Positions 759-50,179 of a stretch of 64,000 nt of DNA are shown here, one piece after another (the first letter of the stretch is position 1; the number at the start of each line of letters is the position of its first letter). The stretch covers positions 1,318,737 to 1,382,736 of the forward strand of contig OZ241967.1 in assembly GCA_965204055.1 (NCBI GenBank), written 5' to 3'. Origin of the DNA: Bdellovibrionales bacterium (GTDB lineage: Bacteria > Bdellovibrionota > Bdellovibrionia > Bdellovibrionales > UBA1609). Under the pieces are notes generated by a model that was not told the DNA's origin, searched no databases, and saw only the letters and a program-made list of their open reading frames with translations. The position numbers were made by a program, and so were the translations under genes.

Positions 759-1039
759 AGTGACACCTCCTTATCTTTATTTACAAACTATCAAGTTCTA
801 TCTAAACTATCGCTTCCTGTTATATTTTATTATAAGGTTTTTTGCGCTAATAATCAAGATTAATGCGGTTTTGACGCACCGCCAACCATTTTGCTGACGC
901 AAGCAAAATGGTCATTCTCTTTTTTTCTCATCTGATTTTAATTTTCTCTCCTATTTTTTAACATCTTCAAAGTCATTGATTAGGTGTTTGTATCATTTTT
1001 GTTTTCATGTTGTTGCCTCCTCTGAAGTTTTATTTTTGA

Positions 1040-3439
1040 TTAGCCTTTTCTTTCCACTACTTTTACCATTTCGTTGTAATGCGTTTTATCAACCTCTTCT
1101 ATCCATTTGAAAATATCTCTTATAACTGGATAGCTTTCTCCCATAAGATTTTCTGCTGTGTCTTCGTTGATTTCAATTTTATCACTATGGGAATATTTAT
1201 TTATAAAATTGTGAATTTTCTCTTTAATTTCAGGAGTTGTTTTTTTACAGTTCGTGAGACCCGTATCTAATAAAATACCTAAATCAGAGCGGTGCTTTGG
1301 ATATTTAAAGTAAAAAAAAGATTCCAGCAGTTTTCTGGATAAATTTGCAGTCAAAAATGCTTGATTAATATCCAGATTGCTTGAGTCTTTAAAATTAAAA
1401 AGACTTTCAAAAATATAATGATACTCTGAATTATATTTAAGAAGGCTGTCAGGCATGTTGTCCAATTTAGCATTGCGTGTGCCTTGATCAGTCGGGGAAG
1501 GAGATTGTTTTTTATAACTGTTAGACATATTTTCTAATTCATTATTTTGATGAGGGATGGATACTTTTGCATTGACTATGAAAAAGTGTGCTGTGGGAGA
1601 GTTAGATTGTTTTTCTCTTTTACGATTTTTATTTCTCTTGATTAGCCAGTCTCGCACCAATTTAAAATAAGTAAAATTGTGTGTAAATACGAATAGCTGT
1701 TTAGCTTTCCCACAATGGGAGCGCAAAAATGAATACGCCTGAAACAAATTATTTGAATCAAAACTGGACATAGGATCATCTATAACAATAATACTATCTT
1801 TAACTTTGTTGTTTTTTTCTGTAAGTTTGGTAATAAAATAAATAAAGGCTATAGCTCTTTTTTCTCCTTCACTTAAGTATTGGCTGTGTTGCTCTTCCTG
1901 ATCTCGTATAATATCATATCCTTTATTTTTCTTGTTAAATTTAAGAGATAGGTTATTTCTGCCTAAAAACTTGTATAGATGTGAGTTGATTTTTTGTGCT
2001 CCAATCCCTTCATTAGAAAGAGAAGCTTCCAGTTTTTGAATTTTTGTTTTTCTATCTCTATCTTGTTTATCTAATTCTTTAATATTGTTTTTTTGTTTTG
2101 CTAAATTGTTCATCTTTTGATAATAATTAAAATTTTTAATTTTTTCAGTCGCATAATGAAGTTCAAGAGCTTTTTTTCTCTTTTTTGTTTCTATTTCAAA
2201 ATTGTTTGTTTTTTGATTATGCTTTTCCACAAGTTTTTTAATATTTTCAATATGAGAGTTCAGTTTTTGAAATACAAACTCATCTAAGCTATCAATAACC
2301 AATGATGTATTAAAAGGATTTTTGATTTTTTCTTGTATAAGATTTTTCCATTTTTCAAGTAAATTATTTATTTCTTTTGATGTGGAAATTAAATTGTTAG
2401 AATCTTTTTTAAAGTTTTCCTCAAATTCCTTATAAAACTTTTCTCTACTCGGAAGTTTATCGTCTATCTGGATAAAAAGCCCACTGATTGATTCAGAAAC
2501 TCTTTGTAAATTGTTCTTAAAGTTTTCAAACTCTTTATTAAAATGCCCTTCCAGTTGTTTAATACGTTCTACTGGCAGGGTATTGTTACAAAATTCACAT
2601 TTGTCAGATTTATGTTTTTTATGTATTTTAATGCCTGTTTCGACCCACGACTGTATATCACTTTTTAAAACAAATCGCTCTATTGTGTTACTTACAACAC
2701 TTTTACTTAACAGTTTAGAGATTTCTGTTTCTTTAGTTTTAAGTTTTTCAAAATTAATTACAGGCAAATTTAATTCAATTTTATCTTTTTTGTTAGGCTT
2801 TGCTCCTTCTATACATTGTTTTACTTGTGTTTCTTTTAATAAGCTTGATTTTTCTTTTACTACTTTTTTGTTTTCATTCATAAATTGTTCTAATTTTCTT
2901 TTATCATAGTTCATAAAATAATTGTCATTTGTATCAATAGTTTGTAGATTCTGCTTTATGGATTTAGCGGTCTGGGTCATAAATTTTAATATTTCTTTTT
3001 CAGAATCTCTTATATCATTTTCTATTTTTTGGTTGTTTTTAATACTAATTTGTTGTTTCTCTTTTAATTGGTTTAATTGTTTTCTTTCACCAATTTTTTC
3101 TTCTGCTATAAGTAAAATGCTTTTTACAGAATTGTCCCAGTCAATATTTTCTTTAATGAAAGAGTTATTAAATATATGTAGATTTAAGTTTAACTTGCTT
3201 AAATTTTTCTGTGTTATTTTGTTTTTGTTTTCCATAGTGATAGAAAACTCTGATGAAGAAAATCTGTCGGGCAGTTTTTTCTTTTTTAGTAATTCAAATA
3301 AGGAAACAAGAGTTGTTTTTCCACTCCCGTTCCACCCATAGATTAAATTGAATTTATTAAAATCCTGAACATCTTTATTTGTTTGAGAATAGTCTTTAAA
3401 AATTCCAAAATTTTTAAGGTGTTTTATGTTTTTTATCAT
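1040..3439 (-). CDS. rloC: RloC-like anticodon nuclease: ABC/AAA_13-type ATPase with a coiled-coil zinc-hook insert and a PrrC-type C-terminal domain
   Basis: 799 aa. P-loop GWNGSGKTT, signature-like LSEGEKRAIAF and Walker B IIVIDDPMSSFD. These are separated by about 450 aa of Lys/Glu-rich coiled coil containing a CxxC loop (KCEFCNN). The C-terminal part has an R-x3-E...H pattern (SRKLLESFFYF ... KYSHSD), as in PrrC/RloC nuclease domains. It is embedded in a type I R-M locus, as prrC/rloC usually are. Confidence 0.75.
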   Translation of the reverse strand: MIKNIKHLKNFGIFKDYSQTNKDVQDFNKFNLIYGWNGSGKTTLVSLFELLKKKKLPDRFSSSEFSITMENKNKITQKNLSKLNLNLHIFNNSFIKENIDWDNSVKSILLIAEEKIGERKQLNQLKEKQQISIKNNQKIENDIRDSEKEILKFMTQTAKSIKQNLQTIDTNDNYFMNYDKRKLEQFMNENKKVVKEKSSLLKETQVKQCIEGAKPNKKDKIELNLPVINFEKLKTKETEISKLLSKSVVSNTIERFVLKSDIQSWVETGIKIHKKHKSDKCEFCNNTLPVERIKQLEGHFNKEFENFKNNLQRVSESISGLFIQIDDKLPSREKFYKEFEENFKKDSNNLISTSKEINNLLEKWKNLIQEKIKNPFNTSLVIDSLDEFVFQKLNSHIENIKKLVEKHNQKTNNFEIETKKRKKALELHYATEKIKNFNYYQKMNNLAKQKNNIKELDKQDRDRKTKIQKLEASLSNEGIGAQKINSHLYKFLGRNNLSLKFNKKNKGYDIIRDQEEQHSQYLSEGEKRAIAFIYFITKLTEKNNKVKDSIIVIDDPMSSFDSNNLFQAYSFLRSHCGKAKQLFVFTHNFTYFKLVRDWLIKRNKNRKREKQSNSPTAHFFIVNAKVSIPHQNNELENMSNSYKKQSPSPTDQGTRNAKLDNMPDSLLKYNSEYHYIFESLFNFKDSSNLDINQAFLTANLSRKLLESFFYFKYPKHRSDLGILLDTGLTNCKKTTPEIKEKIHNFINKYSHSDKIEINEDTAENLMGESYPVIRDIFKWIEEVDKTHYNEMVKVVERKG

Positions 3440-3477
3440 ATTTTTGTCCTTATTTTTTATATTTTATATTTAACTCA

Positions 3478-4341
3478 TTAGTTATTTAAAATCTTTTGTT
3501 TAATTTTTTCAAAATGGTTGTTATCATGTTCTTGTCTAAACAAAGATTTTTCTACAACATCCTCATTGATATATTTTTTAGCTGATGCTTGATTATGCTT
3601 AATACTGTTTAGTAAAAAGCATAAAGCTTTTTCTTTTATATCAGATATATCATCATTAAAGAAACAACGGCAAAAAAACTTGTTTTTCAAAAAAGGAAAA
3701 TATTTTGGCAATTTATCTATGGTTTTTGGTGTAGATGGGGTTTGACCTTGATATCCTATTTTCACCTCACCTATTTTCTCTTGTTTTCCCCAAATTTCAA
3801 ACTCAGTATAATATCCATAATCATTCCACAGTGTGGGGTTTCCTTGAGAAAGACGATTATATTTTGGATAAATAGAAATAAACTTTGCTTTTGCACGGTT
3901 AATAGCGAAGCCTTTGATTTTCAGTTTCTGTAAACACTGTTTTTCTTTTTTCCAATATTGTTTATATTTACTGCTAAATATTATTTCCTTGATCAATTTA
4001 GGGAACAACTGTTGTATATTTTTATACTTTATAGCTTGTTGTCTTGCAATAAAACCCCAAGAAGAAGTTGTGTTATCAATAGTGGAAATTATTGGTTTTT
4101 TATGAGCTATTGCCATACCGATTTCCTGATTGCAGTATATGCTGTCTTTTGCCTCTTTGTTTCCGACTATTAAGAAAATATCACAATTTGCAATTTCTTT
4201 TTTTATTCTCTCCAAGTCATGCTCTCCGGGAGTTATGTCATCATGTGCTAAAAAGCAGTTTATTCCACAAATAAACAAATCTCTTTTTAGATCGCCAAGA
4301 ACTTTCTTATCCGTTGCTGAATGACTTATAAACATTTTCAT
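3478..4341 (-). CDS. TIR-domain protein with an uncharacterised C-terminal domain
   Basis: 287 aa. The N-terminal ~130 aa fit the bacterial TIR pattern (MFISHSATDKK, FLAHDD, SIYCNQEIGMA with the conserved Glu). ATGA start/stop overlap with hsdS at 4338-4341. Confidence 0.7.
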   Translation of the reverse strand: MKMFISHSATDKKVLGDLKRDLFICGINCFLAHDDITPGEHDLERIKKEIANCDIFLIVGNKEAKDSIYCNQEIGMAIAHKKPIISTIDNTTSSWGFIARQQAIKYKNIQQLFPKLIKEIIFSSKYKQYWKKEKQCLQKLKIKGFAINRAKAKFISIYPKYNRLSQGNPTLWNDYGYYTEFEIWGKQEKIGEVKIGYQGQTPSTPKTIDKLPKYFPFLKNKFFCRCFFNDDISDIKEKALCFLLNSIKHNQASAKKYINEDVVEKSLFRQEHDNNHFEKIKQKILNN

Positions 4342-5690
4342 ATTTTTAGTCTCCAGTGGCCGGTGAGGAGTTTTTGCATAAGCCCCTTCTTTTGTATGCG
4401 GTATTTTTCCATTGTTTTTTTAAGCAGATCAATTTCTTTTTGAGCAGTATAGAGTGTGTGAGCAATGTTTTTTTGCTGTTCAAATTTTGGTAGAGAAATT
4501 TTCAAAGTTTTTAAATCCTTTCCGTATAAATGGATAATTGTAATTCCTTGTGTAAAATTGGCTATTTCCTTTTTTTTACTATGCGTGAGACAATAAGAAA
4601 GAAATGCAGAGTCATACCTCTGTATGTATTTCTTTACTCTTAAAATATTGATATCACCTCCCAATAAAACATCATCTTCAAACAATGCTGTTGCATTAGC
4701 TAAGTCAATACCTTTTGTTGTAGTAGAACCAGGAAGTAAAACATCTCCAGTTTTTGACACAACTCCATTTTCTATATTCGTACGACTTACAATCTCCTTA
4801 ATAATTTCAGGATAAACTGTGTATAACTCTCCATATAATATACACTTATTTTTTCCAGTTTTACTGATATTGCTTTTTGATAGCCCCTTTCCTTTAAAAA
4901 TTTTACAAATATCATCTAATTTTACTGTTTTCCAGGTGGGGTTTTGTTGTTGGTCAGAAATGAGTTTTTTTAACAGCCACTTAAATTGTTGTTCCTTGGC
5001 AGAAATAAGCTGTTCGGTTTTTTCAATAGCCCTGTCCCACACCTCCAACACAGAAACAATCGCCCTTTGCTCAGCAAGGGGAGGGAGCACAATCCAATAT
5101 AGGTTAGCTTGTGGTATTGTGAGTTGTGGTACTCCTGTTGTTTCTTTCAAGAATTTAATTTTATGGTTAATGTATTCAGAAACAAATTTATTTAAAACTG
5201 GAATTTTACTTTTTAATACTAATAACCGGCCTATTGCTACAAATCTTGTTTCTCTATAATTTGCTATACCGATATCTCCTCTGGCAGTAATGGTAATTGC
5301 GTCTGCATCGTGCTTTGCATAAGTACTGTAACCATACAATCCTTTATTTGTCAGTGCATTGGAATAGATAGGATATAGATGAAGTGTATCTTGAACTAAC
5401 GCAGACTCTCGAGGATTAAAATCCCCCCCTGCGGAAATATTATAAACATCACCTAATTTCATTCCTTTCCATCCTTTAGGCAACTTTGAATCTTCTCCTT
5501 TTATTCTCACTCTGTTGTTTTGGATTCCTGATTTTGCGGGACGGGTAGACAAATTGTTGCCTTCCCGTTTAGGTTCTAGATTTTTGCTCAAACGCGGGCC
5601 TGCAAAGCCAACGATTTGGCTTTGCAGTTTAGCAGTAGTGAGCGACCTATTTGTTTGTTTGTTCTTCATATTTTTAAATCCTATGTTCAT
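4338..5690 (-). CDS. hsdS: type I restriction-modification specificity subunit HsdS (two target-recognition domains)
   Basis: Two TRD-like halves, each followed by a conserved helix (PPLAEQRAIVSVLEVWDRAIEK and LPKFEQQKNIAHTLYTAQKEIDLL). The first ~70 codons of the ORF run through a MITE-type palindrome (5590-5630). The true start is probably further in, for example the ATG at 5462 or the TTG before LPKGW. Confidence 0.85.
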   Translation of the reverse strand: MNIGFKNMKNKQTNRSLTTAKLQSQIVGFAGPRLSKNLEPKREGNNLSTRPAKSGIQNNRVRIKGEDSKLPKGWKGMKLGDVYNISAGGDFNPRESALVQDTLHLYPIYSNALTNKGLYGYSTYAKHDADAITITARGDIGIANYRETRFVAIGRLLVLKSKIPVLNKFVSEYINHKIKFLKETTGVPQLTIPQANLYWIVLPPLAEQRAIVSVLEVWDRAIEKTEQLISAKEQQFKWLLKKLISDQQQNPTWKTVKLDDICKIFKGKGLSKSNISKTGKNKCILYGELYTVYPEIIKEIVSRTNIENGVVSKTGDVLLPGSTTTKGIDLANATALFEDDVLLGGDINILRVKKYIQRYDSAFLSYCLTHSKKKEIANFTQGITIIHLYGKDLKTLKISLPKFEQQKNIAHTLYTAQKEIDLLKKTMEKYRIQKKGLMQKLLTGHWRLKI

Positions 5691-5705
5691 TACACATATT
5701 TTTTA

Positions 5706-5987
5706 TTACCCATCGCTATCCTTGTTATATTTTGGATTGCGCCCACCATGATTTTGCCGATACTGCTTTAAATCCTGTGCTTCCTTTCTTTTTGCTCCAG
5801 CCTCTGTCATTTTTCGAGAGGTTGGCTGAAGATGAGAAAATCGTTTTCCTTCTTGTTTATGTTGCATTTCTCTTTTTTCTGGATCCTGGGTTATACCTTT
5901 ATAAACAACCTTTCTATTTTGTTTTAAATTGTATGTTATAGTATTTTTTTTTGGCATATTTGCCTCCTTTGTTGTTTTTTTGTTCAT
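5706..5987 (-). CDS. small basic protein with a weak GIY-YIG-like pattern
   Basis: 93 aa; ITYNLKQNRKVVYKGITQDPEKREMQH loosely resembles GIY..YIG..R..H of URI nucleases. Weak call. Confidence 0.35.
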   Translation of the reverse strand: MNKKTTKEANMPKKNTITYNLKQNRKVVYKGITQDPEKREMQHKQEGKRFSHLQPTSRKMTEAGAKRKEAQDLKQYRQNHGGRNPKYNKDSDG

Positions 5988-6059
5988 TGGTTTTTTCTTT
6001 CTATTTTGTTCTTTCCCAGTCTTTTTCTTTTGCCTTTCTCAAGTGCTTTAATACCGCTG

Positions 6060-6371
6060 TCAGGTGTGGGCAAATCTTCCGGCATACCTACTTAGACGAT
6101 AGTCGTAGTCTGGGATATGACGCTCTACACCTAAGCCAATTTTGACCATTTTTCCCAGCTGGGAAAAATGGTCAGAAGGGGAGTTTTTGGAATTTTCACA
6201 AGCTTTTATAGCTTTTTGAATAACCACTTTAAATTTATCCCAACTACTGTATCCTAAAACCACCTGTAAGTCTCTGGCAGACCAAAACTCTACCCCTTCC
6301 GGTGTTTTTTGACGAATATCCTCAAAGGTTTTGTGGTGGCTTTTCAATACTGGTCTGGTTTTATTCTTCAT
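6060..6371 (-). pseudogene. DinD-like (DNA-damage-inducible protein D) N-terminal fragment
   Basis: FEDIRQKTPEGVEFWSARDLQVVLGYSSWDKFKVVIQKAIKACENS matches the N-terminal half of DinD-type proteins. The ORF is too short and its C-terminus looks unrelated. Confidence 0.55.
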
Positions 6372-6586
6372 TTTTTCCTCCTGTCTGTTTTTCTTTTCAC
6401 TTGCTTTGTTAGCTGTTCAATTTCTTTTATATTCATATCAAGGTTATAGTGTGTCATGTTGTAAGATTTGCCATCAGTGGCAGTGTTCGCCAGACTGTTC
6501 CTTCTAAAGCCCTTAATTGAACCTCTACCTGACCATTTTTCGGGTGTGTATATAATCATCTCCCTTTTATGTAACAGTTTATTCAT
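6368..6586 (-). pseudogene. RhuM-like fragment
   Basis: ATDGKSYNMTHYNLDM resembles the DGK.Y....YNLD core of RhuM-family proteins, which are often found between hsdM and hsdS. Only 72 aa. Confidence 0.45.
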
Positions 6587-8088
6587 ACTCCAAACTCCTT
6601 TAATCGCTTGCTCATCTCTGTGCGTGTTTTACTTAATTCTTTTTCCAAATCTTTAATCTCCCTTTGCGTCTTATGAATATCTACTACCTCCTCTTCCTCA
6701 AAAGTATCTACATAACGGGGAATGTTTAGGTTGTATTCATTTTCTCGAATTTCCTTTAAGGGTGAAAGATAAGCGTATTTGTCTATATTTTTTCTTTTTT
6801 TAGAAGCATTTAAAATTTTTTCAATATCTTGCTCCCGAAGTTTATTTTGATTTTTACCTGTTAAAAAATCCCGGCTGGCATCAATAAATAACACATCTTT
6901 TTTCTTTTTGTTTTTATGAAAAATCAAAAGAGCGGCCGGAATACCTGTTCCAAAAAAAAGCCCCGAAGGAAGGCCAATTACTATGTGTATTATGTTTTCT
7001 TCTATCATTTTTTCCCTGATGCGTCCTTCTGCTCCTCCGCGAAAAAGCACTCCGTGAGGAACAACCACACCGGCTTTTCCATCCGGTTTTACGCTTTCAA
7101 CAGCATGGGATATAAAAGCCCAGTCCCCTTTTGCATCAGGAGGCATGCCTCGATGAAAACGATTATAAGAATCATTTTGCGCGCTTTCATAACCCCATTT
7201 TTTTTTGCTAAAAGGGGGATTAGCTATCACCTTATTAAACTGCATTATGGATTTTTTTTCCAAAAATTGAGGAGACTGAATAGTGTCTCCCCATTCAATA
7301 TAAGATTGTGTTATCCCATGTAAAAACATATTCATTTTAGCTAAAGCCCAAGTTCCTCCGTTTATCTCTTGCCCGTATAGGGCAAAATTGGCACTGTTGA
7401 TTTCCTGTCTGGCTTTAATCAAAAGAGAGCCTGTTCCGCAAGCCGGATCGTAAATTTTATCTCCCTCTTTTGGTTCAATCAGTTTGGCTAATAACTTTGA
7501 TACTTCCGCAGGAGTAAAAAACTCTCCACCCTTCTTTCCCGCTTTTTCTGCAAAGTTTTGAATCAAATACAAATAGGAAGCACCAATAATATCTGACTGG
7601 CCTAAAAAATGTTTGAGATCGATATCTTTAAAATCGTTAATTAAATGTCTTAAAAGGGCATTTTTAGCTTTTGGCTTTCCCAGTAGAGCTTCTGAATTAA
7701 AATCCACATTTCTAAACACATTGTGCAGTTTTAATTGGTTAAGATCTTCCACTTCGTGAAAAACCTTGTTAATAATTTCTCCAATGTTGTCTTTGTTTCT
7801 GTGAGTAAAGATATAATTAAAGGAGCATTTATCATTTAATACAAAGGGTTCTCGTTTTAATCTTCTGTGGATTTTCTCTTTGTTCCCTTTGTAAGTCTTT
7901 GTGTATTCTTTTATCTTACTTTCATAAATATCAGAAATATACTTAAGAAATAAAAACGCCAGAATATAATCTTTATATTGGGAAGCATCAATCGTATGCC
8001 TAAAGGTGTCGCATGCCTTCCATAACTTTGCGTTTAACTCGTTAATAGAGGAATTAGATTTTTCGGTTGTTTTCTTATTAGGTTTCAT
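6583..8088 (-). CDS. hsdM: type I restriction-modification DNA methyltransferase subunit HsdM (N6-adenine)
   Basis: 501 aa. HsdM N-terminal domain (LWKACDTFR, YKDYILAFLFLKYISD), AdoMet motif DPACGTGSLL and catalytic NPPF (VIANPPFSKKKW). Confidence 0.95.
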   Translation of the reverse strand: MKPNKKTTEKSNSSINELNAKLWKACDTFRHTIDASQYKDYILAFLFLKYISDIYESKIKEYTKTYKGNKEKIHRRLKREPFVLNDKCSFNYIFTHRNKDNIGEIINKVFHEVEDLNQLKLHNVFRNVDFNSEALLGKPKAKNALLRHLINDFKDIDLKHFLGQSDIIGASYLYLIQNFAEKAGKKGGEFFTPAEVSKLLAKLIEPKEGDKIYDPACGTGSLLIKARQEINSANFALYGQEINGGTWALAKMNMFLHGITQSYIEWGDTIQSPQFLEKKSIMQFNKVIANPPFSKKKWGYESAQNDSYNRFHRGMPPDAKGDWAFISHAVESVKPDGKAGVVVPHGVLFRGGAEGRIREKMIEENIIHIVIGLPSGLFFGTGIPAALLIFHKNKKKKDVLFIDASRDFLTGKNQNKLREQDIEKILNASKKRKNIDKYAYLSPLKEIRENEYNLNIPRYVDTFEEEEVVDIHKTQREIKDLEKELSKTRTEMSKRLKEFGV

Positions 8089-8163
8089 TGTTAGTTTCCT
8101 TTTTTATTAGGTTTCATTGTTAGTTTCCTTTTTTATTAGGTTTCATTGTTAGTTTCCTTTTTT
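8077..8163. repeat. three perfect 29-bp tandem repeats carrying the hsdM RBS and start codon
   Basis: The unit attaggtttcattgttagtttcctttttt occurs at 8077-8105, 8106-8134 and 8135-8163. Counted by hand, no mismatches. Confidence 0.95.
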
Positions 8164-8932
8164 ATAAAAGTTTCTTCAATACTGAGTTTATTAAAATATG
8201 TTTTTTTTCGTCTACTGTTTCTTGTAAAAGTTTTTCCCGTGCTCTTAATTTTAATAAACACACAATTTTTTTTTGAATACTCATAGAGGGCAGAGGAATT
8301 TTAAAATTCATTAGATCGATTCTGGAAATAAAAGGTAGAGCAGAACCTGTAAGATGCTTTTGGACATAGCCCCTTATAGTAAAGCTTTGATTTAAAGCCC
8401 AACACAGGTAATCTGAATCAATATAATTAACTTTAGGGCGCAAAATATAAAAATGTGCCATTGGTAATGTGTTGTTAATTGGCCCTGTGTATCGAAACGC
8501 GCCAGGATTTAGTTTAGAAAGATATAGGACATCATTTTTTTGAACAAGATATTTGCTTATAAATTTGCTTTTTCGCTCAGGAATAAACATTTGTTCTAAA
8601 CCATCCAGTTTTATATGATATAATATGTCGCGACAGGCAGATTTTGCCTGTATAAGGTTATAACTTTTATATTTTTCTTTCGGGTTTATAAGGTGTAGGG
8701 CTTTGCCTGTTTCTTCTGAGGAAAAGTTAGAATAGGGTACGCTTACTTCTGATAATTTGTGGAACTTTGTTTTTAATTTCTGAGGTGGTTCTGCTGGGTC
8801 ATTAAGATTTTTATCTGTAAAAGCAAAAGGAAGGTGAGCTTTTATCTTCTGTGCAAATCCTCTAACCTGAAAGCCAGTTTGAATAGCAATAAGGTTCGAT
8901 AATATGGCTTCTTTAGATTTAAAACGAGACAT
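8162..8932 (-). CDS. half-size HsdS-like specificity protein (single TRD)
   Basis: 256 aa. The C-terminal part (ALPFISRIDLMNFKIPLPSMSIQKKIVCLLKLRAREKLLQ) matches the TRD-plus-conserved-helix pattern of HsdS. It lies directly upstream of hsdM on the same strand. Confidence 0.7.
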   Translation of the reverse strand: MSRFKSKEAILSNLIAIQTGFQVRGFAQKIKAHLPFAFTDKNLNDPAEPPQKLKTKFHKLSEVSVPYSNFSSEETGKALHLINPKEKYKSYNLIQAKSACRDILYHIKLDGLEQMFIPERKSKFISKYLVQKNDVLYLSKLNPGAFRYTGPINNTLPMAHFYILRPKVNYIDSDYLCWALNQSFTIRGYVQKHLTGSALPFISRIDLMNFKIPLPSMSIQKKIVCLLKLRAREKLLQETVDEKKHILINSVLKKLL

Positions 8933-9331
8933 TTATGCCCTCCTTAATCTCTTTGAGCTTAATTTGCACCTCCAAACAACTCGGGATTTTATTATTTATC
9001 ATTTATGCCTTCCTTCTGAGCTATTAATATAGATGTTTTAGATTTAAAGCGAGGCATTTATGCCCTCCTTCAGAGCTATTTTAAAAAAAAACTGTATTTT
9101 TTATTTATTCAAAAATATAAAATTAAGTATGTCAAGAAAAAAATTGCATAAATTAAAAATTCAATAAAAAATATGTAAAAAGTGGTTTTAAGTGGTTTTT
9201 GATGCTAAGCATAAAATTTTTCTTGAATTTTAATAAGTCTTGTGCGATAAATTCATCATACCCCCAGTTACGGCCTTGAGCCGGCTGGCCCCGGGAGCCT
9301 GAGCGACCGGTTTTTTTTTACCTTAGTTTAT

Positions 9332-9376
9332 ATGAAAAAAGTTATAGCTTTTATAGATGGGTTCAACCTTTATCCC
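9332..9376 (+). pseudogene. NYN-domain (LabA-like) gene stub, cut off by an IS end
   Basis: MKKVIAFIDGFNLY is a typical NYN-domain N-terminus. Homology stops where the IS1634-type end begins. Confidence 0.45.
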
Positions 9377-10058
9377 GACTTCCGCTAAACCGCAGTGCAA
9401 TAAATGAGTGATTTCCGACACTTACAAATTTCTGGTGCCACACATTTTTAAGATTTAGTTCAAGGAGTGGAGATAAATTTAGACACTCTTTTAAGTCCTA
9501 AGGCCTCGTATATGGATCTTATTTCTTTTGTGCTTTTAGAGGGCATGCGATAAAGATTTTTGTTTGCGTCCTCTATAAGGCTATATTGATCTCTTTTTAA
9601 AATCTCTCTCATCTGCCTTATGCTGAAGTTTAATCCTCTTTGTTCCATCCGATACTTCATAGTATAGGAAAGAGAGTAAGCTAAGAAGCATATAGCTATA
9701 TGGGCCTCTATTCTTTTCCTCTTCCAATGGTAAATGGGTCTCATCTTAAGGTTGTGTTTGCACACACGAAAAGCCTCTTCTATCTTCCAAAGTCTCCTGT
9801 ATCGGGTCAGTATCTCTTGAGGGGTTTGCTCTGTTCTTATGTTGGTTATTACTCCATGCAACCCATCCCACTTACTATCTTCTTTTATCTTTTGTTCGTT
9901 TAATGTAGCTTTTGTCTTTTGAACTGTGACATACTTTTTTGTTCCATAATTAGAGATAAGGCTTTTTATAGGAATTTGGTTTTTCTTTACTTTTTTCATC
10001 AGTCTTTCAATGAGTCTTAGTCTATCGGACTTGTTCTTCTTGGCTCTCTTCTTAGAGT
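9374..10058 (-). mobile_element. IS1634/IS4-family IS remnant (3' part only) with a transposase C-terminal fragment (ORF 9460..10074)
   Basis: The ORF fragment contains WDGLHGVITN, RYRRLWKIEEAFRVCKHNLKMRPIYHWKRKRIEAHIAICFLAY, typical of IS1634-type DDE transposases. The 5' part is missing, replaced at 10059 by an IS5-type element. The terminal ~85 bp (9374-9459) recur at 56123-56252. Confidence 0.7.
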
Positions 10059-10734
10059 AGTCGGCCCTGAACAAATGCTATTTTGTTAAAAAGCAGGTTG
10101 ATTTTTTATAAAATTATAATTTTGAATCTGTTTTTTCAACCAGCAAAAAAAGAACAAAAAGAAAGACCGCATGATCTTTCTCATATTAAACGCACTTGCT
10201 ACTAAAATAGGATTGATCTTATCTCCTTCTATCCCATGCAAATAGTTTACCCCCATACGATGCTCCTGTTTAATATGACCTATCACCGGCTCAATCGCCG
10301 TTCTCCTTTTTAAAGCTCTCTTCAACTTAGGAGATAATCGCCTCATCCCTGATATAAACACACTCTTTCCTAACAGCCTCATCCGATAAATCAAATACAT
10401 ACTTCAGGTAAATTAAACCCACAACTAATCGCACAGGAAGAGCAGGACGCCCCCTGTCTGAAGGAAAAAAAGTCTTAAACTTCCTCTCAAATTTTGACCA
10501 ATCTATACAATCTGCTAATTGAACAAGACCCATTTTCATATTTAAAAAATCTACTAAACGGGGCCGACCTAATTCCAATTGCTCACAATCTCTTTCAGAC
10601 TTCTTAGGCTTCATTTTTACCTCCAAACTTGCAAGGTTTTTAAACCTCTTTATATTTTCCTTGCAAATATTTTCCTTGCAAATTATAAAAAAATCAAGTG
10701 ATAATAATGCGTTAACATTTATTCAGGGCCGACT
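10059..10734 (-). mobile_element. IS5-family element, internal-deletion derivative (676 bp) of the intact copy at 48628-50103
   Basis: Both ends are near-identical to the full copy (agtcggccctgaacaaat... / ...attcagggccgact). The two ORF pieces (10327..10626 N-terminal, 10086..10400 C-terminal) match the first ~90 and last ~95 aa of the 442-aa transposase. About 800 bp are missing. Confidence 0.85.
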
Positions 10735-10755
10735 AACTATAATAAGGAGGTATTT

Positions 10756-13211: not shown

Positions 13212-15166
13212 CTTTTTTTTTGCGCAGAATAATTTTAATACCCCCATTTTATGCAATAGCTAAAAATTTAGCTAAAGTATGTGCTTTTTTGGGAGGAATA
13301 ATTTTAATATCCCCTTTTTATGCAATAGCTCAACAGTCAGATGAAGATCAGATGTCATTTATTTATGAGTTTAACATGTATTTCGATCACAAGGCTATAT
13401 CAAGTCAAAAAATCCGTTTATCATTAAAAAACAATGAAATAGACCTATCTCCTTTTATTGAAATGATTAACAAGTTAAGAGAATCTGATTATGCAAACGA
13501 TCTAAGATATATGGAAGTTGAGATCAGGGAGTTAAATTATAATGAAGATTTCATAAAGTTTTGTGAAAAAAGTTTATCCGAAAATTGTATGGAAAAAGCC
13601 AAAAATAGTTTGGAAAATGCTTTTTTAAAGATAGTTCAGGAAAAAGAGAATCAAATTCTTTATCCTGAAGATTATAGAGATATAGCAATTTATGGGCTAT
13701 CTCAAGAATCAAATAATTATATGATCCAAGATGCCAATGAAATTTTAAATTCTGAATGCACCGATAACTGGAATGAAAGGAAATTATCCAATATCATACT
13801 CACCCTCCACCCCAATCGCTGGGCTGAGCTAAAAGATAAACTAAAATATAAAGATAAAAATTTTTTGAATCAAGTTTTACAAAAAACTTATGATAAATTA
13901 AAAAAAGCAACATTTCCCGAACAGTGTCTCGATCCGGACAACCAAACCCATAGAGTTTGCAAAAGAGTAACAAAAGAGCTATCTATCAAAAAACAAAGAT
14001 TTAGATATCTAACAGAATTAGTCTATGGTGAGGATATATTACAAACTACTGAGGCTGAAGCCCCTTGTGTGGATTGTTTAGAAGGTTCTTTACCTGAAGA
14101 GCTAAGTGATTTAAACCAACTTTTTTCTCGTTTAAAGGAACATAGTGTATGCTCTGGCCCGGCCCCTGGAGAAGAAAAACAAGTTACCAACAATGGAGAC
14201 AGTTACACAGTGCGGAGAGAATCAGATGGATCTTTTTCGATTCCTTTAAACCTTGCATTTTCAGCAGACGAAGACTATGATGGGGAAGTTCCAAAGGACC
14301 AAGTGCCCAATCATTATAAAAACAAAGTGCAGGAATGTTTAAAAAAAGCCAATTCCAAAATGTTAGGCCCTAATGGGGAAAAACTGAACATAGTTATTGA
14401 ATCTCCCTCTAAAGAAAGTGCTTGCGGAAAAGAAAAACCTAAGACTATAAAGATTGGTCCCAGAAATTACAGATCGTATGTGGTTAAATATGAATCCAAT
14501 ATAGACTGCCCTACCATTACTCATGAGGTCTTGCACCTCTTAGGGCTTTGTGATGAGTATAAGGAAACAGTTACAGGATTCCAAGTGTCGGCGGATACAA
14601 GAGAAGTAAAAACAGCAAATATATTCGAAAAACTCGATAACGAAAATGATAAATTTGTTCTTGCTTATGACTGTCGGGTAACAGCTGAAAACAGTATTAT
14701 GTCTGACCAATATGAAAGATGGGATAATGTGTTTGAAGAAGGAGAATTTAGTACGTCTCCAAGAAAAAAAACAGAATCATCTCTTTTAAACAAAGCGCAA
14801 TTTAATGCTGTTCTCTATGGGGACTGCCCCTCTAAAAACGAACTTTTTAATGAGTGTGCAGATTTGGCTTATAAAACTTCAGTGATGGAAGGTAATGAAA
14901 ACTGTTTAAAACAAAAAAGAAAATGTATGGAAAATAATGTAATGGGATACAACAAAGCCGAGGAATTATCAAGAATCAGAGAGGAAATAAAATCTACAGA
15001 AAATATGAAGAGGGAATTATTATCATATCGTCAAAAAACAATAGAGAAAGAAACAAAGTTGCCGACAGAGCTTTCTTCTTGGTATGATAATCAAATCCAA
15101 GAAGCCGATTCCTGGCTTAAAGAACTAAGAGAAGAGTTAGAAATGGTATCGGCTTGGCCGGATTGA
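13187..15166 (+). CDS. secreted HExxH zincin-like protein, paralog A
   Basis: 659 aa. N-terminal hydrophobic signal. ITHEVLHLLGLCDEY (HExxH followed by DEY, reminiscent of M64-type metallopeptidase motifs). Many Cys. C-terminal coiled coil. Confidence 0.8.
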   Translation: MFKFYKALTFFLRRIILIPPFYAIAKNLAKVCAFLGGIILISPFYAIAQQSDEDQMSFIYEFNMYFDHKAISSQKIRLSLKNNEIDLSPFIEMINKLRESDYANDLRYMEVEIRELNYNEDFIKFCEKSLSENCMEKAKNSLENAFLKIVQEKENQILYPEDYRDIAIYGLSQESNNYMIQDANEILNSECTDNWNERKLSNIILTLHPNRWAELKDKLKYKDKNFLNQVLQKTYDKLKKATFPEQCLDPDNQTHRVCKRVTKELSIKKQRFRYLTELVYGEDILQTTEAEAPCVDCLEGSLPEELSDLNQLFSRLKEHSVCSGPAPGEEKQVTNNGDSYTVRRESDGSFSIPLNLAFSADEDYDGEVPKDQVPNHYKNKVQECLKKANSKMLGPNGEKLNIVIESPSKESACGKEKPKTIKIGPRNYRSYVVKYESNIDCPTITHEVLHLLGLCDEYKETVTGFQVSADTREVKTANIFEKLDNENDKFVLAYDCRVTAENSIMSDQYERWDNVFEEGEFSTSPRKKTESSLLNKAQFNAVLYGDCPSKNELFNECADLAYKTSVMEGNENCLKQKRKCMENNVMGYNKAEELSRIREEIKSTENMKRELLSYRQKTIEKETKLPTELSSWYDNQIQEADSWLKELREELEMVSAWPD

Positions 15167-22901: not shown

Positions 22902-24572
22902 TCAACAGACTTTGAGTTTGAGTATTCTGTCTATGCGGAACATTCTTTCGTCCTGCATATTTAAGCAAAAAGCTCGCATGCCTTGATATTTTGTGCCCTT
23001 GTAAGTTTGCCAACCACATTCCAAAGGTTCCACCACAAAGAAGGATTTTAGGTCATTGGTTTTGAGATACTGGATCTTCAGTTGTTTTTTGCTTTCGATA
23101 GCCTTTTGAATAAGAATCATTTTATCTTGGACAGACATTTCCCTTTCTGCTTGGCGATATTGCCATTGGGTTAAAAATTTCATAATTCGATAATCAACAC
23201 GGATATGTTGTTTTTGGATAGGCACTTTCAACACAAGACCTTTAAAAGAAACACATCGGCTGAGGGCCACATAGGCTTGACCGCTGGCAAACATACCCCG
23301 GCTCATATCTATAATCACTCGCTCAAAAGTTTTGCCTTGACTTTTATGAATAGTGATGGCCCAGGCCAAACGAAAAGGGAATTGAGTAAAAGTGCCCACT
23401 AAATCTGAAGTAATAGCTTTCTTTTTTTCGGAGAAGGAAAATTGATAAATTTCCCATGTATGAGGAGACACAGAAACGATTTTATTTTCTGGATAAAGCT
23501 GAACTCGCACAAAATATTCTTTTCTGTTCTCTATATTTGCGCGATCCTCTATGTCCAAGTGGTTTTCTATGTCCACGCTATTCTCTATGTCCAAGTGGTT
23601 TTCTATGTCCACGCTATTCTCTGTGTCCACGCTATTCTCTGTGTCCACGCGAACCTCTATACCTACAATACGACCCACACTGCCATTCACCCATCGCTTT
23701 TTTGAATCATTGTTGAGGAGCATAACTTGCGCGCCTTTTTTAAATTTTAAAAGCTCATGGGTAGGAAAATACTCCTTTCCCACTTGGCCAGATATAATTG
23801 CTGAAGACTGAAAAACTTTGCCTTTTAGTTTTTTTAAACGTTCTTCGTTAATTTTATCAGCGGTTTTGTTGATAGCATTTAAACTTATATAAAACTGATT
23901 TTTTTCTGGCTTAAAAGAAGGAAGAAAACGGCGGTTTAAACAATCAATGTCATACTGCTGAACAGAGTTGTTTCTCACTCGATTTAACAGTTCTATAAAT
24001 TTTTGATCTTTTTGCCTGTAAACTTTTTCTAACTCTATGATTTCCATTTTAAACTTGTGCAGAGCTTTTGCACTAAAAAAAAAGGGAGATTCATACTGAG
24101 AGGAAAATACTTCTTTTTCCTTTGCTGTTACCACAGGAGGTAGCTGATAGAGATCACCGATAAAAATCATCTGCACTCCTCCAAAGGGCTTTGTTTTTTG
24201 AGGTCCATATCGACGTAAAAAAATATCTACACAATCTAAAAGATCGGCCCGTACCATAGATATTTCATCAATAATCAAGGTTTTTAAATTTTTATAAATA
24301 GCAGGATCTTTAGGCTTTTTTTTGCTTTTTTTTATTTTCTCTACATGAACATCTATATAAAATTTAAAAAAATTGTGTATGGTTTGGCCCTTTATATTTA
24401 ATGCGGCTACTCCTGTAGGAGCCAGTATCACAGGCTTTTTATCTGTAATAGAGCAAAAATATTCCAACAAAGTGGATTTACCTGTCCCGGCCTTTCCGGT
24501 GATAAAGAGGTTTTTTGTGGCTCTCATACCTTGAAGAGCCTGATTAAACTGAGGATTAATGTCTAACTTCAT
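22902..24572 (-). CDS. PIF1/RecD-family helicase with a WYL-like C-terminal domain and an internal 6-aa repeat insert
   Basis: Walker A GKAGTGKST, LIIDEISMV, FIGDLYQLPPV, ITIHKSQGKTF and ALSRC. C-terminal ~90 aa ending MFRIDRILKLKV resemble a WYL domain. The start is taken at MKLDINPQ (ATG 24572) because the upstream part of the ORF is made of 60-bp direct repeats. Confidence 0.85.
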   Translation of the reverse strand: MKLDINPQFNQALQGMRATKNLFITGKAGTGKSTLLEYFCSITDKKPVILAPTGVAALNIKGQTIHNFFKFYIDVHVEKIKKSKKKPKDPAIYKNLKTLIIDEISMVRADLLDCVDIFLRRYGPQKTKPFGGVQMIFIGDLYQLPPVVTAKEKEVFSSQYESPFFFSAKALHKFKMEIIELEKVYRQKDQKFIELLNRVRNNSVQQYDIDCLNRRFLPSFKPEKNQFYISLNAINKTADKINEERLKKLKGKVFQSSAIISGQVGKEYFPTHELLKFKKGAQVMLLNNDSKKRWVNGSVGRIVGIEVRVDTENSVDTENSVDIENHLDIENSVDIENHLDIEDRANIENRKEYFVRVQLYPENKIVSVSPHTWEIYQFSFSEKKKAITSDLVGTFTQFPFRLAWAITIHKSQGKTFERVIIDMSRGMFASGQAYVALSRCVSFKGLVLKVPIQKQHIRVDYRIMKFLTQWQYRQAEREMSVQDKMILIQKAIESKKQLKIQYLKTNDLKSFFVVEPLECGWQTYKGTKYQGMRAFCLNMQDERMFRIDRILKLKVC

Positions 24573-24624
24573 TTTCCAACTTTTATAGACTCCCACGGCT
24601 AAAATCGTGGTGCTCTGTCTTTGA

Positions 24625-24773
24625 CCGCATAGTGATATGCCAGTCAAATGACCAGAGCAATAACCTTTAGACTTTGCGGAAACTCCGCATAGTGATATGC
24701 CAGTCAAATGACCAAAAGTGACCCCCCCGACGATTCAAGCCACTGGACCCGTAATATGACAGTCAAATGACCA
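24625..24773. repeat. three direct repeats of about 30 bp at 60-bp spacing upstream of the helicase gene
   Basis: ccgcatagtgatatgccagtcaaatgacca occurs at 24625-24654 and 24685-24714 (identical). A degenerate third copy lies at 24748-24773. Confidence 0.8.
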
Positions 24774-27872: not shown

Positions 27873-30800
27873 TTAAAATAAGTCTAATTCTTTTCTTTCT
27901 TGTTCTTTTTGTTTTATTTGGTTTATTCTGTCCTGCAAATAAGATACTTGATTTTTGCAAAAATCCCTTATATTTTTATGTTTGTGATTTCGTAAATTCA
28001 TTATAGCGGTTTTTATATTTTCATAATAATACAAATAACTACCTTTCACTACACCAGGATTTCCTAAATTTGTGGAAATAGCCGATGTGATTTCTTCTTG
28101 ATCTCCATAATTATCAAACAAGAAATAAGCTAAGGAAGACCAAACATATAATTTTTTTTCTGTATCATGGTTTAAAAGGTCTATATTTTCAGCCAAAAAA
28201 GCAGGTATTGTGTCTGGTGCTTTTTTACACCATTTTTTAAGTGTTTCTTCATTGCACACAAGAGAAAGCAGGCTTTTTTTATATAGATTCAAATCGCTAC
28301 TTTTAAAGAGTTGCCTTATATTAAATTTATTCATATTTTTGTCATAGTTTTTCGCTATTTCTGATAACACTATATCAGGATATTTTTCAGTTATTTTTTT
28401 TAAACATTCTTTTATACATTCTTCAGAAAGTGGCAGATCAAAAAGAGAACTTTTGTAATAAAAAATTTTACTCACAAAAAATTTAGAAAAATTTTGAGCA
28501 AGAATAGAAAAAGGCTTTTTATCAGATAGGGAAAAAAGTTTAAAAACCAATGATTTGTAAGAATGATCACTATTTGTATAGTTACGGCGTATTTTATTTG
28601 AAGAAGGGATTTCTTTGAATAAGTTTTTTTGTGTTAATAGCTGGCAACATACAGCCGGCAAAAGCTTTTCTTCTTTTTTTGCAGAAGAATATACATAATA
28701 GCTATATATGTTTAAAGCGGACTTAACCCATTCTACACTGTTGTTTTTATTGGTCAAGAAAATTATAAGATTTTTCATTTTCTCCGGGCTTACATTTTGG
28801 CATTTTTGGCCAGTGGAAAGGTGCTTTAGCTCCCAAAACAATTCAGGAATGTCGGCAATTTGGCTTAACTGGGTTAAAAATTTTATAAGCCGTGTAATAT
28901 CTTTATCGCATAAATCCATACTGTGATAAGCCGGAAGTAAAAAGCGTTTATATTCTGCATGGTGAGCTATTTTGTCCAAAATTTTTTGTGTTTTTTCTGG
29001 TGCTTGAACATTTAATCCAGATATAAAACCGCATAAGAAGGAAGGATTAAAATCTTTATTCTTTTTCCATTGATTAATGTGGTTCAATAAATTATTCATC
29101 CATTGTATGATTTGATGATTATCAGATTTAATATTTCTTGTGTCTATATTGTGTTTTAATTTTTTTTTGTTATGGCTTGTTAGTGTTTTTGTTTTGGAAA
29201 AAGAATTTTTATTGATAAATAATTTTTTAGCAGTCTCTTTGGCAAAAATAATGGTGTTGGTTTGTTGTCCATGAAATAGTATCTTAAGAGTAGCTATTAT
29301 ATTTTCCGGTTTTGCTTTTTGGATGTAGCCTATAAAATCATCAATCAGCTTTGTAAAGGCTGGGCTGCACCCCTTATTATGTTTTTTAAGGTTATATATT
29401 TGATAGTCATCACTTTCTGTCACATATAAGCGAATTTTTTTATTTATATCCTGTTTTACATGTTGCAGTAATTCTAATATTTCTTTGGTTTTTTTTATTG
29501 TTTCTTTGGTTTCTTTGTTTGATCGATATTGTAAAAATTGCTCTATATTTTTTATAGCTAAAAGCCAAAAACCATCCGGTAAAAAATCCATAACCTGTGT
29601 AACTGTTTTTTTTACATCTTCATGCAAGGCTTTTATCTTTAAAAGAGGGGGCAAATAGTTTGCTATAGTATCTTCTGCCTTCTTTCTTATGTTGTTATCT
29701 AAGTCAGAATCTGTTGCAAATTCAGTTAAGTGTTTTAAAGCTCTTCTGTGGTAATTCCATAGTTCGCCATAAGTAGCCGGTCGCCATTCTGTGCGAGGCT
29801 CTATGATAGAGCTGTCATAATTTCCCATATAACCACCAAGTTGTGGCAAAGCTTTTTCTAAAGCTTGAACAGCTATTTCTTTTTGTTTGTCTGTTCCTTC
29901 TTGTGTTATTTCTTTAATAAGCTGAAATTTTGTTTCAGGATTGGCCTGAGTTCCAGATAACATAAGCTGAAAATAACTTATAAAAATACCTGTGGAATTA
30001 TTGCCATAATCTTCATTTTCTGCTGTCGCCAGCTTTAACAGTAACCTGGCTGAATCCAAGTAAAATGCTTTTTTAAAAGCCAATTTTTGTAAAATCCCTA
30101 TCCACTCTCTTCGGACGGAAGGCATACCGAAAAACGCTTTCATATTCAAAAGTTCTTCTATAGTTTTTTTTTCAATCACTTTCTCAAGAGAGCTTAAAAC
30201 TTCTTTGGGAGCCAACTTTGTTAGATTATTTACGCAAGAAGCCCCCCAGCCTGTGCTTAAAACTTTTTCCTGTCCAAACAAACCATCTGGCTGGCATAAT
30301 TGCTGAACTACTTTTTGCATTTCAGGATATGTATCCTGTAGTGGCTGTTTTCCTTCTAATTCAATAACTGGTTCTCTTGAAAACTCAGTCAAATAATAAA
30401 TTTGTTTGCAAAAGGATTTTCTTAATGCCTGGTGAGGGGCGTACTCACTTTCCCATTGTTCCAGTTCTTTTTTTTTCTGCTCTGAGAGATTTGCATATCT
30501 TTTTTTATCAGCCTCTTGCTTTTTTTTATACTCTTTTTTTTCCTCTTCTGATAACTGTTGATATTTTTGTTTATCAGAGTCTGCTTTTTTTTGAGACAGG
30601 TCTTTGGATATCTGATCCATACCCGAAAGCCATTTTATTATGGATTCAGGTGGTGTTTCTTGAATAAGCTCCATAGCCAACCAAAGGGCTAAAGGTTTGG
30701 GGCGCACTTGGAGAAAAAGGCCATATTGCTGGATAATTTTTCTTTTTTCAAAAAATTTTATTTTTTTGTAAAATTCATCATAATCCATTTTGGCTATATG

Positions 30801-48559: not shown

Positions 48560-48627
48560 TCACGATCATTGACAAAAAACATACCCCTTGGGAGCGCATA
48601 AAAAAACTTCAATAATACTCAATACTT

Positions 48628-50103: not shown

Positions 50104-50179
50104 ACTTACATACCCCTTATGCCCGTTTTTTGCTAAAGAAAAAGACTTCAAGCCCTTATACGCCATTTACCTTACCTCC

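Follow-up and report, generated by a model that had tools for sequence, protein, structure and literature searches.

Gene content of the locus

We describe a type I restriction-modification (R-M) locus on the minus strand, positions 1040–8932, of a 64-kb stretch of a 2.31-Mb Bdellovibrionales chromosome (contig OZ241967.1); the full 64-kb stretch is called the window below. The locus joins the genes of a type I DNA methyltransferase to those of an RloC-like protein and of a TIR-domain protein, and a gene for the restriction subunit HsdR is missing. An earlier note on this DNA had listed seven minus-strand genes here; all were recovered in the same order and at the same coordinates in a check of the open reading frames (ORFs), family searches confirmed the gene content, and the assignment of the locus to type I R-M is supported by the family matches of HsdM and HsdS.

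The first gene (8162–8932) encodes a half-size HsdS of 256 aa with one target-recognition domain (TRD; Pfam Methylase_S at residues 122–227). It is followed by an intact hsdM (6583–8088) for a type I m6A DNA methyltransferase of 501 aa, which contains the Pfam domains HsdM_N and N6_Mtase and scores 296 bits against TIGR00497 (cutoff 242.75). Three small units separate hsdM from the full-size hsdS: a 72-aa ORF (6368–6586), a relic with a short RhuM-type motif of 22 residues (weak PADLOC PDC-S05 matches, residues 31–53); a Bro-N/DinD-like pseudogene (6005–6371, including a 103-aa ORF at 6060–6371) that is frameshifted and has lost about 490 bp internally; and a GIY-YIG-like ORF of 93 aa (5706–5987; GIY-YIG 20.2 bits, below the cutoff of 22.6). 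The full-size hsdS itself, a 450-aa ORF at 4338–5690, has two TRDs in two Methylase_S stretches (PADLOC Specificity_I, 1.9e-51). The last two genes encode the TIR effector candidate of 287 aa (3478–4341; TIR_2, PF13676, 47.5 bits against a cutoff of 28) and, at 1040–3439, the 799-aa product of rloC, a Rad50-like ABC ATPase fused to a predicted anticodon-nuclease domain (AAA_13 502 bits; PADLOC PDC-S06 562 bits).

The stop codon of hsdS and the start codon of the TIR gene overlap in the sequence ATGA, and rloC starts 38 bp past the TIR stop codon, with an AAGGA ribosome-binding site 9 nt before its start. No minus-strand ORF runs off the left edge of the window downstream of rloC, and the 3' end of a convergent plus-strand gene lies at position 369. 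Promoter-like sites number 42, against a shuffled expectation of 39.7, so that no promoter is claimed.

Probable loss of the restriction subunit gene

Related loci were found through homologs of the TIR protein with its C-terminal domain (TIR-CTD; loci L001, L002, L012 and L013) and through homologs of RloC (L009, L010 and L011). They follow a conserved plan in which half-hsdS, hsdM, a RhuM, Bro-N or DUF4145 gene, hsdS and a variable cargo precede hsdR and ygjP; in all of the loci named, hsdR (in some of them fused to a Fic domain) and ygjP come after the cargo, and the large genes at this place were confirmed as HsdR by the domains HSDR_N, SWI2_SNF2, T1R_D3 and T1RH_C. Of the components of a type I system, the window has HsdM and a two-TRD HsdS, and tblastn with three HsdR queries from the relatives detected no HsdR in the 64 kb; positions 1–1040, downstream of rloC, hold none either. 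The absence of an hsdR nearby, which the earlier note had pointed out, is thereby borne out within the window.

The comparison with L009 is the most detailed. This locus shares 93–98% nucleotide identity with the window over half-hsdS, hsdM and rloC, and aligned segments pair window 6317–9370 with L009 5005–1987 (95.9% identity) and window 961–3451 with L009 12471–9989 (92.8%). Past rloC, L009 continues with HsdR (1202 aa) and then YgjP, and comparison with L009 found no sequence for YgjP, RhuM or DUF6119 in the 64-kb window. Homology to the relatives stops at about window position 830–840. Just before this break, at 830–965 on the minus strand, blastn matches to related loci reveal about 46 bp that correspond to the 3' end of the Bro-N genes lying after rloC in L010 (9007–9052) and L012, together with a hairpin element, CCATTTTGC-N8-GCAAAATGG followed by GGCGGTGCGTCAAAACCGC. 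The element is confined to intergenic spots in the cargo regions of related type I loci, with copies in L009 (13001–13057, between rloC and hsdR), L010 (9272–9305), L001 (7242–7266 and 8117–8162) and L012 (12758–12950, four tandem copies with a 56-bp period, and 14197–14238), and occurs once in the 64-kb window; it might be a terminator, a regulatory site or a recombination site. Beyond this segment there is no homology to the hsdR or ygjP of any relative. The most plausible interpretation of the segment 830–965 is a scar left by a deletion, which would have removed a Bro-N gene and other cargo together with hsdR and ygjP.

The idea that the hairpin forms an integron-like boundary of each cargo gene was rejected, the copies being few and not bracketing every gene. 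Just beyond the scar lies a 100-aa minus-strand ORF (456–758), for which the ribosome-binding site (AAGGAGG) is strong and a promoter-like site, TTGATT-17-TATAAT, is present at 857–829; the ORF matched no Pfam or PHROGs family and has no homolog in any of the related loci.

The earlier note had suggested that the methylase may lack a restriction partner, or that hsdR may have been lost to insertion sequence (IS) activity at 9.3–10.7 kb. The comparison with the relatives upholds the loss, and contradicts both the site and the cause, as the relatives' hsdR–ygjP pair lies at the other end of the operon. Two minus-strand IS pieces are present at the half-hsdS end. The older one (9369–10074) retains the C-terminal part of a DDE_Tnp_1 transposase (Pfam), and its 3' end stands beside half-hsdS in L009 as well (83.75% nucleotide and 82% amino acid identity), a locus that keeps hsdR; the IS debris was accordingly rejected as the cause. 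The second piece (10058–10735) is an internally deleted copy without transposase residues 113–378, corresponding to an internal deletion of about 800 bp, and blastn aligns it at 99% identity to both ends of an intact IS at 48627–50104. That intact element encodes a 473-aa DUF772 transposase and lies 38 kb from the deleted copy in the same orientation; the two together imply recent IS activity in this genome. No IS sequence was found at the left break (about 830–965).

If an HsdR encoded elsewhere in the genome acted in trans with HsdM and HsdS, RloC and the TIR protein would be backups of a working R-M system. Such an arrangement was proposed for G. kaustophilus, in which rloC lies by an hsdR relic and a complete hsd locus is found elsewhere (PMC2610378), and our direct inspection covered 64 kb of the 2.31-Mb chromosome. 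Against it stand the lack of any HsdR-like sequence in these 64 kb and the fact that none of the best 120 homologs of the L009 HsdR (identity of at least 40%) is placed on the source chromosome, on which the TIR and RloC proteins of the window are indexed; this is a weak negative, as it extends to these 120 homologs and each cluster is represented by its longest contig only. We regard a trans-acting HsdR as unlikely and favor the deletion of hsdR from a formerly complete system.

In the Bdellovibrionales/Oligoflexia relatives, HsdR is often fused to an N-terminal Fic domain of the AMPylase type, and the fusion proteins have about 1340–1730 aa. Fusions of this kind are encoded in L002 (10845–15056), L010 (10947–15179) and L013 (10855–15165) and by many other HsdR homologs, and L011 and L012 have a separate Fic gene just upstream of hsdR.

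The remaining modification genes

The window HsdM is 99.6% identical in amino acid sequence to that of L009, and the half-HsdS is 96.9% identical to the product of a 256-aa L009 gene. A half-size hsdS directly upstream of hsdM is kept across the group besides the full-size gene (L009 2416–3186; L002 4604–5209; L011 2349–2987; L012 1419–2042; L013 5449–6054), which suggests two alternative specificity subunits per system. In the full-size hsdS, similarity to L009 is confined to the conserved central and C-terminal parts, with 94% nucleotide identity; the TRDs differ. The relatives' HsdS proteins have 385–408 aa, compared with 450 for the window ORF, in which the Methylase_S match begins at residue 71; the true start is probably internal, in which case the first 50–60 codons would not be part of the protein. 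HsdR is dispensable for methylation, which is carried out by HsdM2–HsdS, and the locus is probably a methylation-only remnant.

The small units upstream of hsdS show various degrees of decay. The 103-aa ORF matches positions 5–93 of the 288 in the DinD model NF008573, that is, the N-terminal third, and also matches PADLOC PDC-S13. By tblastn, residues 1–97 of the L009 Bro-N protein align to window 6371–6081 and residues 260–286 to 6085–6005 in another frame; because both ends of the gene are kept in different frames, the window Bro-N is a pseudogene with an internal deletion. The 72-aa ORF was rejected as a piece of a neighboring RhuM gene, as L009 has the same sequence (94.5% identical) ahead of a complete RhuM gene (347 aa), which itself gave no tblastn match in the 64-kb window. 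Small GIY-YIG-like proteins of 83–93 aa recur in these defence contexts, with homologs of the window ORF in L011 (6122–6376; 79.5% amino acid identity, 23.0 bits and thus above the cutoff) and in L014 (282–533; 54%), where the gene lies about 9.5 kb from a TIR-CTD homolog.

The RloC-like protein

The 799-aa protein was compared with the published definition of RloC (Davidov & Kaufmann 2008, PMC2610378), which comprises ABC ATPase motifs, a coiled-coil insert that bears a CX2C zinc hook, a size of 658–897 aa and a C-proximal Arg-X3-Glu-X36-52-His triad with a Ser often preceding the His. The length of the window protein falls inside this range, and its AAA_13 match spans positions 2–713 of 713, so that the insert is covered. 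An alignment of 28 sequences was made with 27 homologs, which are 43–80% identical over 99% of the length and many of which, including homologs at 43–51% identity, are named "wobble nucleotide-excising tRNase". Invariant in this alignment are the Walker A motif (G35-N-G-S-G-K41-T-T43), the ABC signature (L-S523-E-G-E-K527), D554-D555, D561 and H587. Both cysteines of the zinc hook C281-E-F-C284, which stands about 240 residues from Walker A on one side and from the ABC signature on the other, are likewise invariant, as are the four residues of R702-K-L-L-E706-X44-S750-H751, the X44 spacing of which lies within the published X36–52. By its ABC motifs, zinc hook, triad and size the protein is RloC-like, and its nuclease activity is predicted. 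The earlier note had called it so from the sequence, a view that agrees with the defining motifs (PMC2610378), the PDC-S06 match and the names of the homologs.

PrrC, the other anticodon nuclease known from such loci, was considered for this protein and rejected: the 799-aa protein is twice the size of PrrC, it has the insert, and its alignment to the PADLOC model of PrrC (model positions 81–234 of 372; E 5e-7) is limited to the ATPase segment, residues 459–608. Single-sequence phmmer searches of the PDB with the RloC and TIR proteins returned nothing significant.

That RloC would ride in type I R-M loci, as the note had stated for PrrC and RloC together, is documented for Campylobacter jejuni (as the "restriction-linked orf") and for 8 of 73 orthologs (PMC2610378). 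RloC differs from PrrC, however, in being rarely linked to R-M and in being self-regulated (PMC2610378, PMC3874168): in A. baylyi it is activated by DNA breaks and unaffected by hsd deletions (PMC3874168), and it is described as an autonomous anticodon nuclease that is switched on by DNA ends via its own ATPase and zinc hook and that R-M proteins do not silence (PMC3458546, PMC3874168).

The TIR protein and its C-terminal domain

The TIR domain occupies residues 1 to about 120 of the 287-aa protein, and a C-terminal domain extends from about 125 to 280. The AlphaFold (AF2) model of the whole protein is of high confidence (pLDDT 91.1, pTM 0.87). A Foldseek comparison with the PDB gave 67 matches at E ≤ 1e-3, the best 50 of which are mostly TIR domains, plus folds of the nucleoside 2-deoxyribosyltransferase type; the N-terminal half matches SPARTA TIR-APAZ, SpbK, TIR-STING and SARM1 (probability 1.0). 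Glu73, in the motif SIYCNQE, belongs to a family motif S-x-[Y/F]-C-x-Q-E-I-G in which the Glu is invariant in 13 members, and it aligns with the Glu of the WCxDE motif (WCWDE) in the CRISPR-associated TIR NADase Cat1. This is the position that we take to be the catalytic glutamate of TIR NADases. The TIR domain with a conserved Glu that the earlier note had recognized is in agreement with the TIR_2 score above cutoff, the fold and the invariance of Glu73.

The TIR-CTD family is small. A word-indexed search yielded 13 proteins, and when 1.84 billion cluster representatives were searched exhaustively by HMMER with only the C-terminal domain as query, 32 matched, nearly all of about 270–300 aa; of the 26 that were scanned for a TIR domain, 20 gave a match. 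A profile scan of genome contigs with the TIR family alignment found one relative in addition to TIR-only matches. The C-terminal domain modelled alone reached a pLDDT of 87.7, and its profile matches fall on the C-terminus of PADLOC PDC-S34 and on the N-termini of PDC-M01A, a PtuA sub-model and phrog_8066. When plasmids were searched with the domain by tblastn, eight "AAA family ATPase" genes were retrieved; inspection of two of them showed an HNH endonuclease gene after each, which makes them Septu PtuA/PtuB operons.

In hhalign, the family profile matches Streptomyces PtuA at residues 14–139 with a probability of 97.85% and an E-value of 6.5e-13, so that the profile comparison which the note had advised for this domain ties it to the PtuA N-terminus. 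Residues of about 155–270 of the window protein are homologous to about 14–139 of PtuA from Streptomyces and from E. coli plasmid Septu operons, with the common motifs WND..[FY].T, KIG[YF].GQ and LP..[FY], which in the E. coli protein read HWNDFSF.T, GNVKIGFQGQ and LPEGYFS. The motifs precede the Walker A sequence GRNGVGKTT of E. coli PtuA (at about residue 195) and the Pfam ATPase matches, which begin at about residue 175; the domain is therefore a discrete module. Most likely it serves as a regulatory, sensing or oligomerisation module that is combined with different effectors, and we infer that the 287-aa protein would be an NAD+-consuming abortive-infection effector under the control of a PtuA-type domain.

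The operon contains neither an HNH (PtuB) gene, which sets it apart from Septu, nor, in Pfam and PADLOC scans, a SIR2- or Macro-SLOG-type gene. Thoeris assignment likewise finds little in its favor, with a score of 23.5 against the NCBIfam Thoeris ThcB4 model (cutoff 220) and weak or partial PADLOC ThsB matches. As a tentative idea, to which we do not yet lean, the proteins that join TIR to a domain resembling the PtuA N-terminus may represent a new single-gene abortive-infection family whose sensor domain also heads a subclass of PtuA. If this were true, a single trigger-sensing domain would serve two modes of killing, by a TIR NADase and by an ATPase/HNH nuclease, and in Bdellovibrionota the TIR gene would be a preferred passenger of the hsdS–hsdR slot that outlasts the loss of the restriction subunit.

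Exchange of cargo among related loci

The slot between hsdS and hsdR accommodates diverse genes in this group: DUF6119, TIR, ThsB-like, Schlafen, Fic, RhuM and Bro-N. The gene after hsdS encodes TIR-CTD in the window and L001, and DUF6119 in L009 and L010. In L002 a 362-aa unknown protein precedes TIR-CTD; in L011 a 368-aa unknown protein is followed by PDC-M50A and a ThsB-like TIR; in L012, DUF6119 and a Dam-like methyltransferase come before TIR-CTD. TIR-CTD is not confined to type I loci: L003 has it beside MTase-HNH and HNH-RAMA genes, and L014 within an island of defence or mobile character. It occurs without rloC in L001, L002, L012 and L013, and rloC occurs without it in L009 and L010; as the two stand together only in the window, they are independent modules.

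DUF6119 proteins of about 545 aa stand repeatedly right after hsdS (L009 8358–9986; L010 4167–5810; L012 6988–8668) and, in L009 and L010, directly upstream of rloC; they have no PADLOC match. The L011 locus, the RloC of which is 67% identical, has a PDC-M50A/PDC-M50B pair (8968–9921; 138 aa and a ThsB-like TIR of 164 aa) immediately before rloC, so that an unrelated TIR protein takes the position of the window TIR-CTD.

This distribution bears on the possibility that the TIR protein, RloC or both are guards in the manner of PrrC, silenced by HsdM/HsdS and fired by a phage anti-restriction protein. PrrC itself is a precedent (PMC2610378), five of the seven TIR-CTD genes of known context lie between hsdS and hsdR, and the TIR gene overlaps hsdS in L001 as it does in the window. 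The overlap, from which the earlier note had drawn co-translation, is real, but the same ATGA junction joins hsdS to DUF6119 in L009; it is a matter of operon packing, not of a specific link between TIR and HsdS. Furthermore, TIR-CTD exists away from type I loci, the domain that forms its C-terminal part also occurs in Septu PtuA, a protein without a link to R-M, RloC regulates itself and is indifferent to hsd deletions in A. baylyi (PMC3874168), and both genes remain intact after the loss of hsdR. A guard role of this kind therefore appears improbable to us.

Synonymous divergence from L009 is uneven along the operon (dS, synonymous substitutions per site, of 0.013 for hsdM, 0.064 for half-hsdS and 0.24 for rloC). 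Together with the differing recognition domains of hsdS, this indicates recombinational mosaicism. The ratio of nonsynonymous to synonymous substitution rates (dN/dS) is 0.12–0.23 for hsdM, half-hsdS, rloC and the TIR gene (0.23 for half-hsdS against L009 and 0.17 for rloC), values that mostly record the history before the deletion and that are consistent with purifying selection on the remaining intact genes.

It might be argued that the whole locus is decaying and that the TIR gene and rloC are nonfunctional or silent, given that hsdR and ygjP are gone, that RhuM and Bro-N have become pseudogenes, that IS debris adjoins, and that promoter-like sites are no more frequent than in shuffled sequence. 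Yet none of hsdM, hsdS, half-hsdS, the TIR gene and rloC is truncated and every catalytic motif in them is intact, the dN/dS values are low, and rloC retains its AAGGA ribosome-binding site, which makes general decay very unlikely. A Thoeris-like pair, in which the TIR protein generates a signal for the adjacent RloC as its effector, is scarcely credible: a TIR gene does stand directly upstream of rloC both in the window and in L011, where it is ThsB-like, and there are weak PADLOC ThsB matches, but the distribution of TIR-CTD is independent of that of RloC, no nucleotide-signal-binding domain (SLOG, Macro or SAVED) is known in RloC, and the ThsB/Thoeris NCBIfam scores are far under their cutoffs.

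Proposed history and function of the locus

We consider it likely, from gene content, motifs and the comparison of loci, that a cargo-bearing R-M operon of a Bdellovibrionales/Oligoflexia-like host has lost its 3' end and retains the modification and specificity genes, RloC and the TIR protein. The ancestral operon, to judge from six relatives with this layout, would have consisted of half-hsdS, hsdM, RhuM/Bro-N cargo, hsdS, variable defence cargo, hsdR and ygjP. Deletion directly downstream of rloC would then have taken hsdR and ygjP, and probably a Bro-N gene; the RhuM and Bro-N genes on the other side of hsdS are likewise decayed. HsdM with HsdS and half-HsdS would form an M2S methyltransferase that methylates a bipartite motif without restriction. 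By analogy with characterised orthologs, the Rad50-like ATPase and zinc hook of RloC would sense DNA ends, upon which the Arg-Glu-His domain would excise the tRNA wobble nucleotide and stop translation; since RloC is autonomous and not silenced by the R-M system, the locus would tolerate losing hsdR. The TIR protein would cleave NAD+ by means of Glu73, with its PtuA-like domain regulating or sensing, and RloC and TIR would be independent cargo modules, not a coupled pair. The three stacked defence effectors of the earlier note overstate the case, as there is no restriction effector without HsdR.

Some points weigh against this history or parts of it. It is by parsimony, and from the relic sequences, that we take hsdR to have been deleted here and not gained in the relatives, and an hsdR could lie elsewhere on the 2.31-Mb chromosome. 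The dN/dS values, as said, largely predate the deletion. With respect to the role of the C-terminal TIR domain, no structural match was found in the PDB or BFVD, because the solved PtuA structures align only to residues 359–458.

Other genes in the window

Several genes outside the locus are worth recording. On the minus strand at 27873–34101, a HipA_C gene (366 aa) lies directly upstream of a gene for a 1711-aa protein with a HipA N-terminal domain (Couple_hipA) and an HTH, about 1500 residues of which have no Pfam match; together the two might make up a HipA-like toxin module of an unusual kind, either split or expanded. The window also encodes a PIF1-like helicase with a fused WYL domain (22902–24707) and an orphan D12-class (Dam-like) adenine methyltransferase (34539–35777), both of which resemble defence or mobile-element genes.

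Comparison with known systems

The nesting of defence genes in type I R-M, BREX and DISARM loci has been described as "guilt by embedding" (Payne et al. 2024), and TgvAB of V. cholerae consists of defence genes embedded in a type I R-M locus. In the window, too, a variable cargo is nested between hsd genes, and candidate families derived from embedding are matched by RloC (PADLOC PDC-S06), by the relics (PDC-S05/S13) and by the C-terminal domain of the TIR protein (PDC-S34, PDC-M01A); here, however, the host R-M system has itself lost its restriction subunit and the cargo is intact. Already on record are the occurrence of rloC within R-M loci, the embedding of defence genes, TIR effectors with exchangeable accessory domains and M/S remnants without a restriction subunit. 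Modestly new are the rare architecture of TIR with a PtuA N-terminal domain and its preference for the hsdS–hsdR slot in Bdellovibrionota, and a well-resolved case of a cargo-bearing R-M operon that lost its restriction gene. In this under-studied clade, represented by metagenome-assembled genomes of Bdellovibrionales/Oligoflexia, the type I R-M operon appears as a landing pad on which one defence cargo can replace another, and near-identical relatives display its swapped (TIR for DUF6119), decayed (RhuM, Bro-N) and deleted (hsdR, ygjP) parts.

The 799-aa protein agrees with RloC in size, ABC motifs, the CX2C hook in a long insert, the Arg-Glu-Ser-His residues and the location in a type I locus. 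It differs in that the linked R-M system has lost hsdR, and the likeness is one of motif definition, not of alignment to an experimentally studied ortholog. With PrrC of EcoprrI the window shares an ABC ATPase joined to an anticodon nuclease, with an Arg-Glu-His triad, encoded between hsdS and the hsdR position; PrrC, however, has 341–416 aa and no coiled-coil/zinc-hook insert, and its silencing depends on the R-M protein, whereas that of RloC does not (PMC3874168).

The TIR protein has the fold, the Glu motif S-x-[W/Y/F]-C-x-x-E and the two-domain layout of the TIR NADase effectors SPARTA TIR-APAZ, TIR-STING, SpbK, Cat1 and ThsB. Its accessory domain is not APAZ, STING, CARF or SAVED but of the Septu PtuA type, and the operon, unlike those known TIR systems, has no ThsA, Argonaute or CRISPR partner. 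With Septu, in turn, the protein has only the N-terminal domain of PtuA in common and it contains no ABC ATPase. This tie between a TIR accessory domain and the N-terminus of PtuA makes a shared sensor a testable hypothesis for the two kinds of defence.

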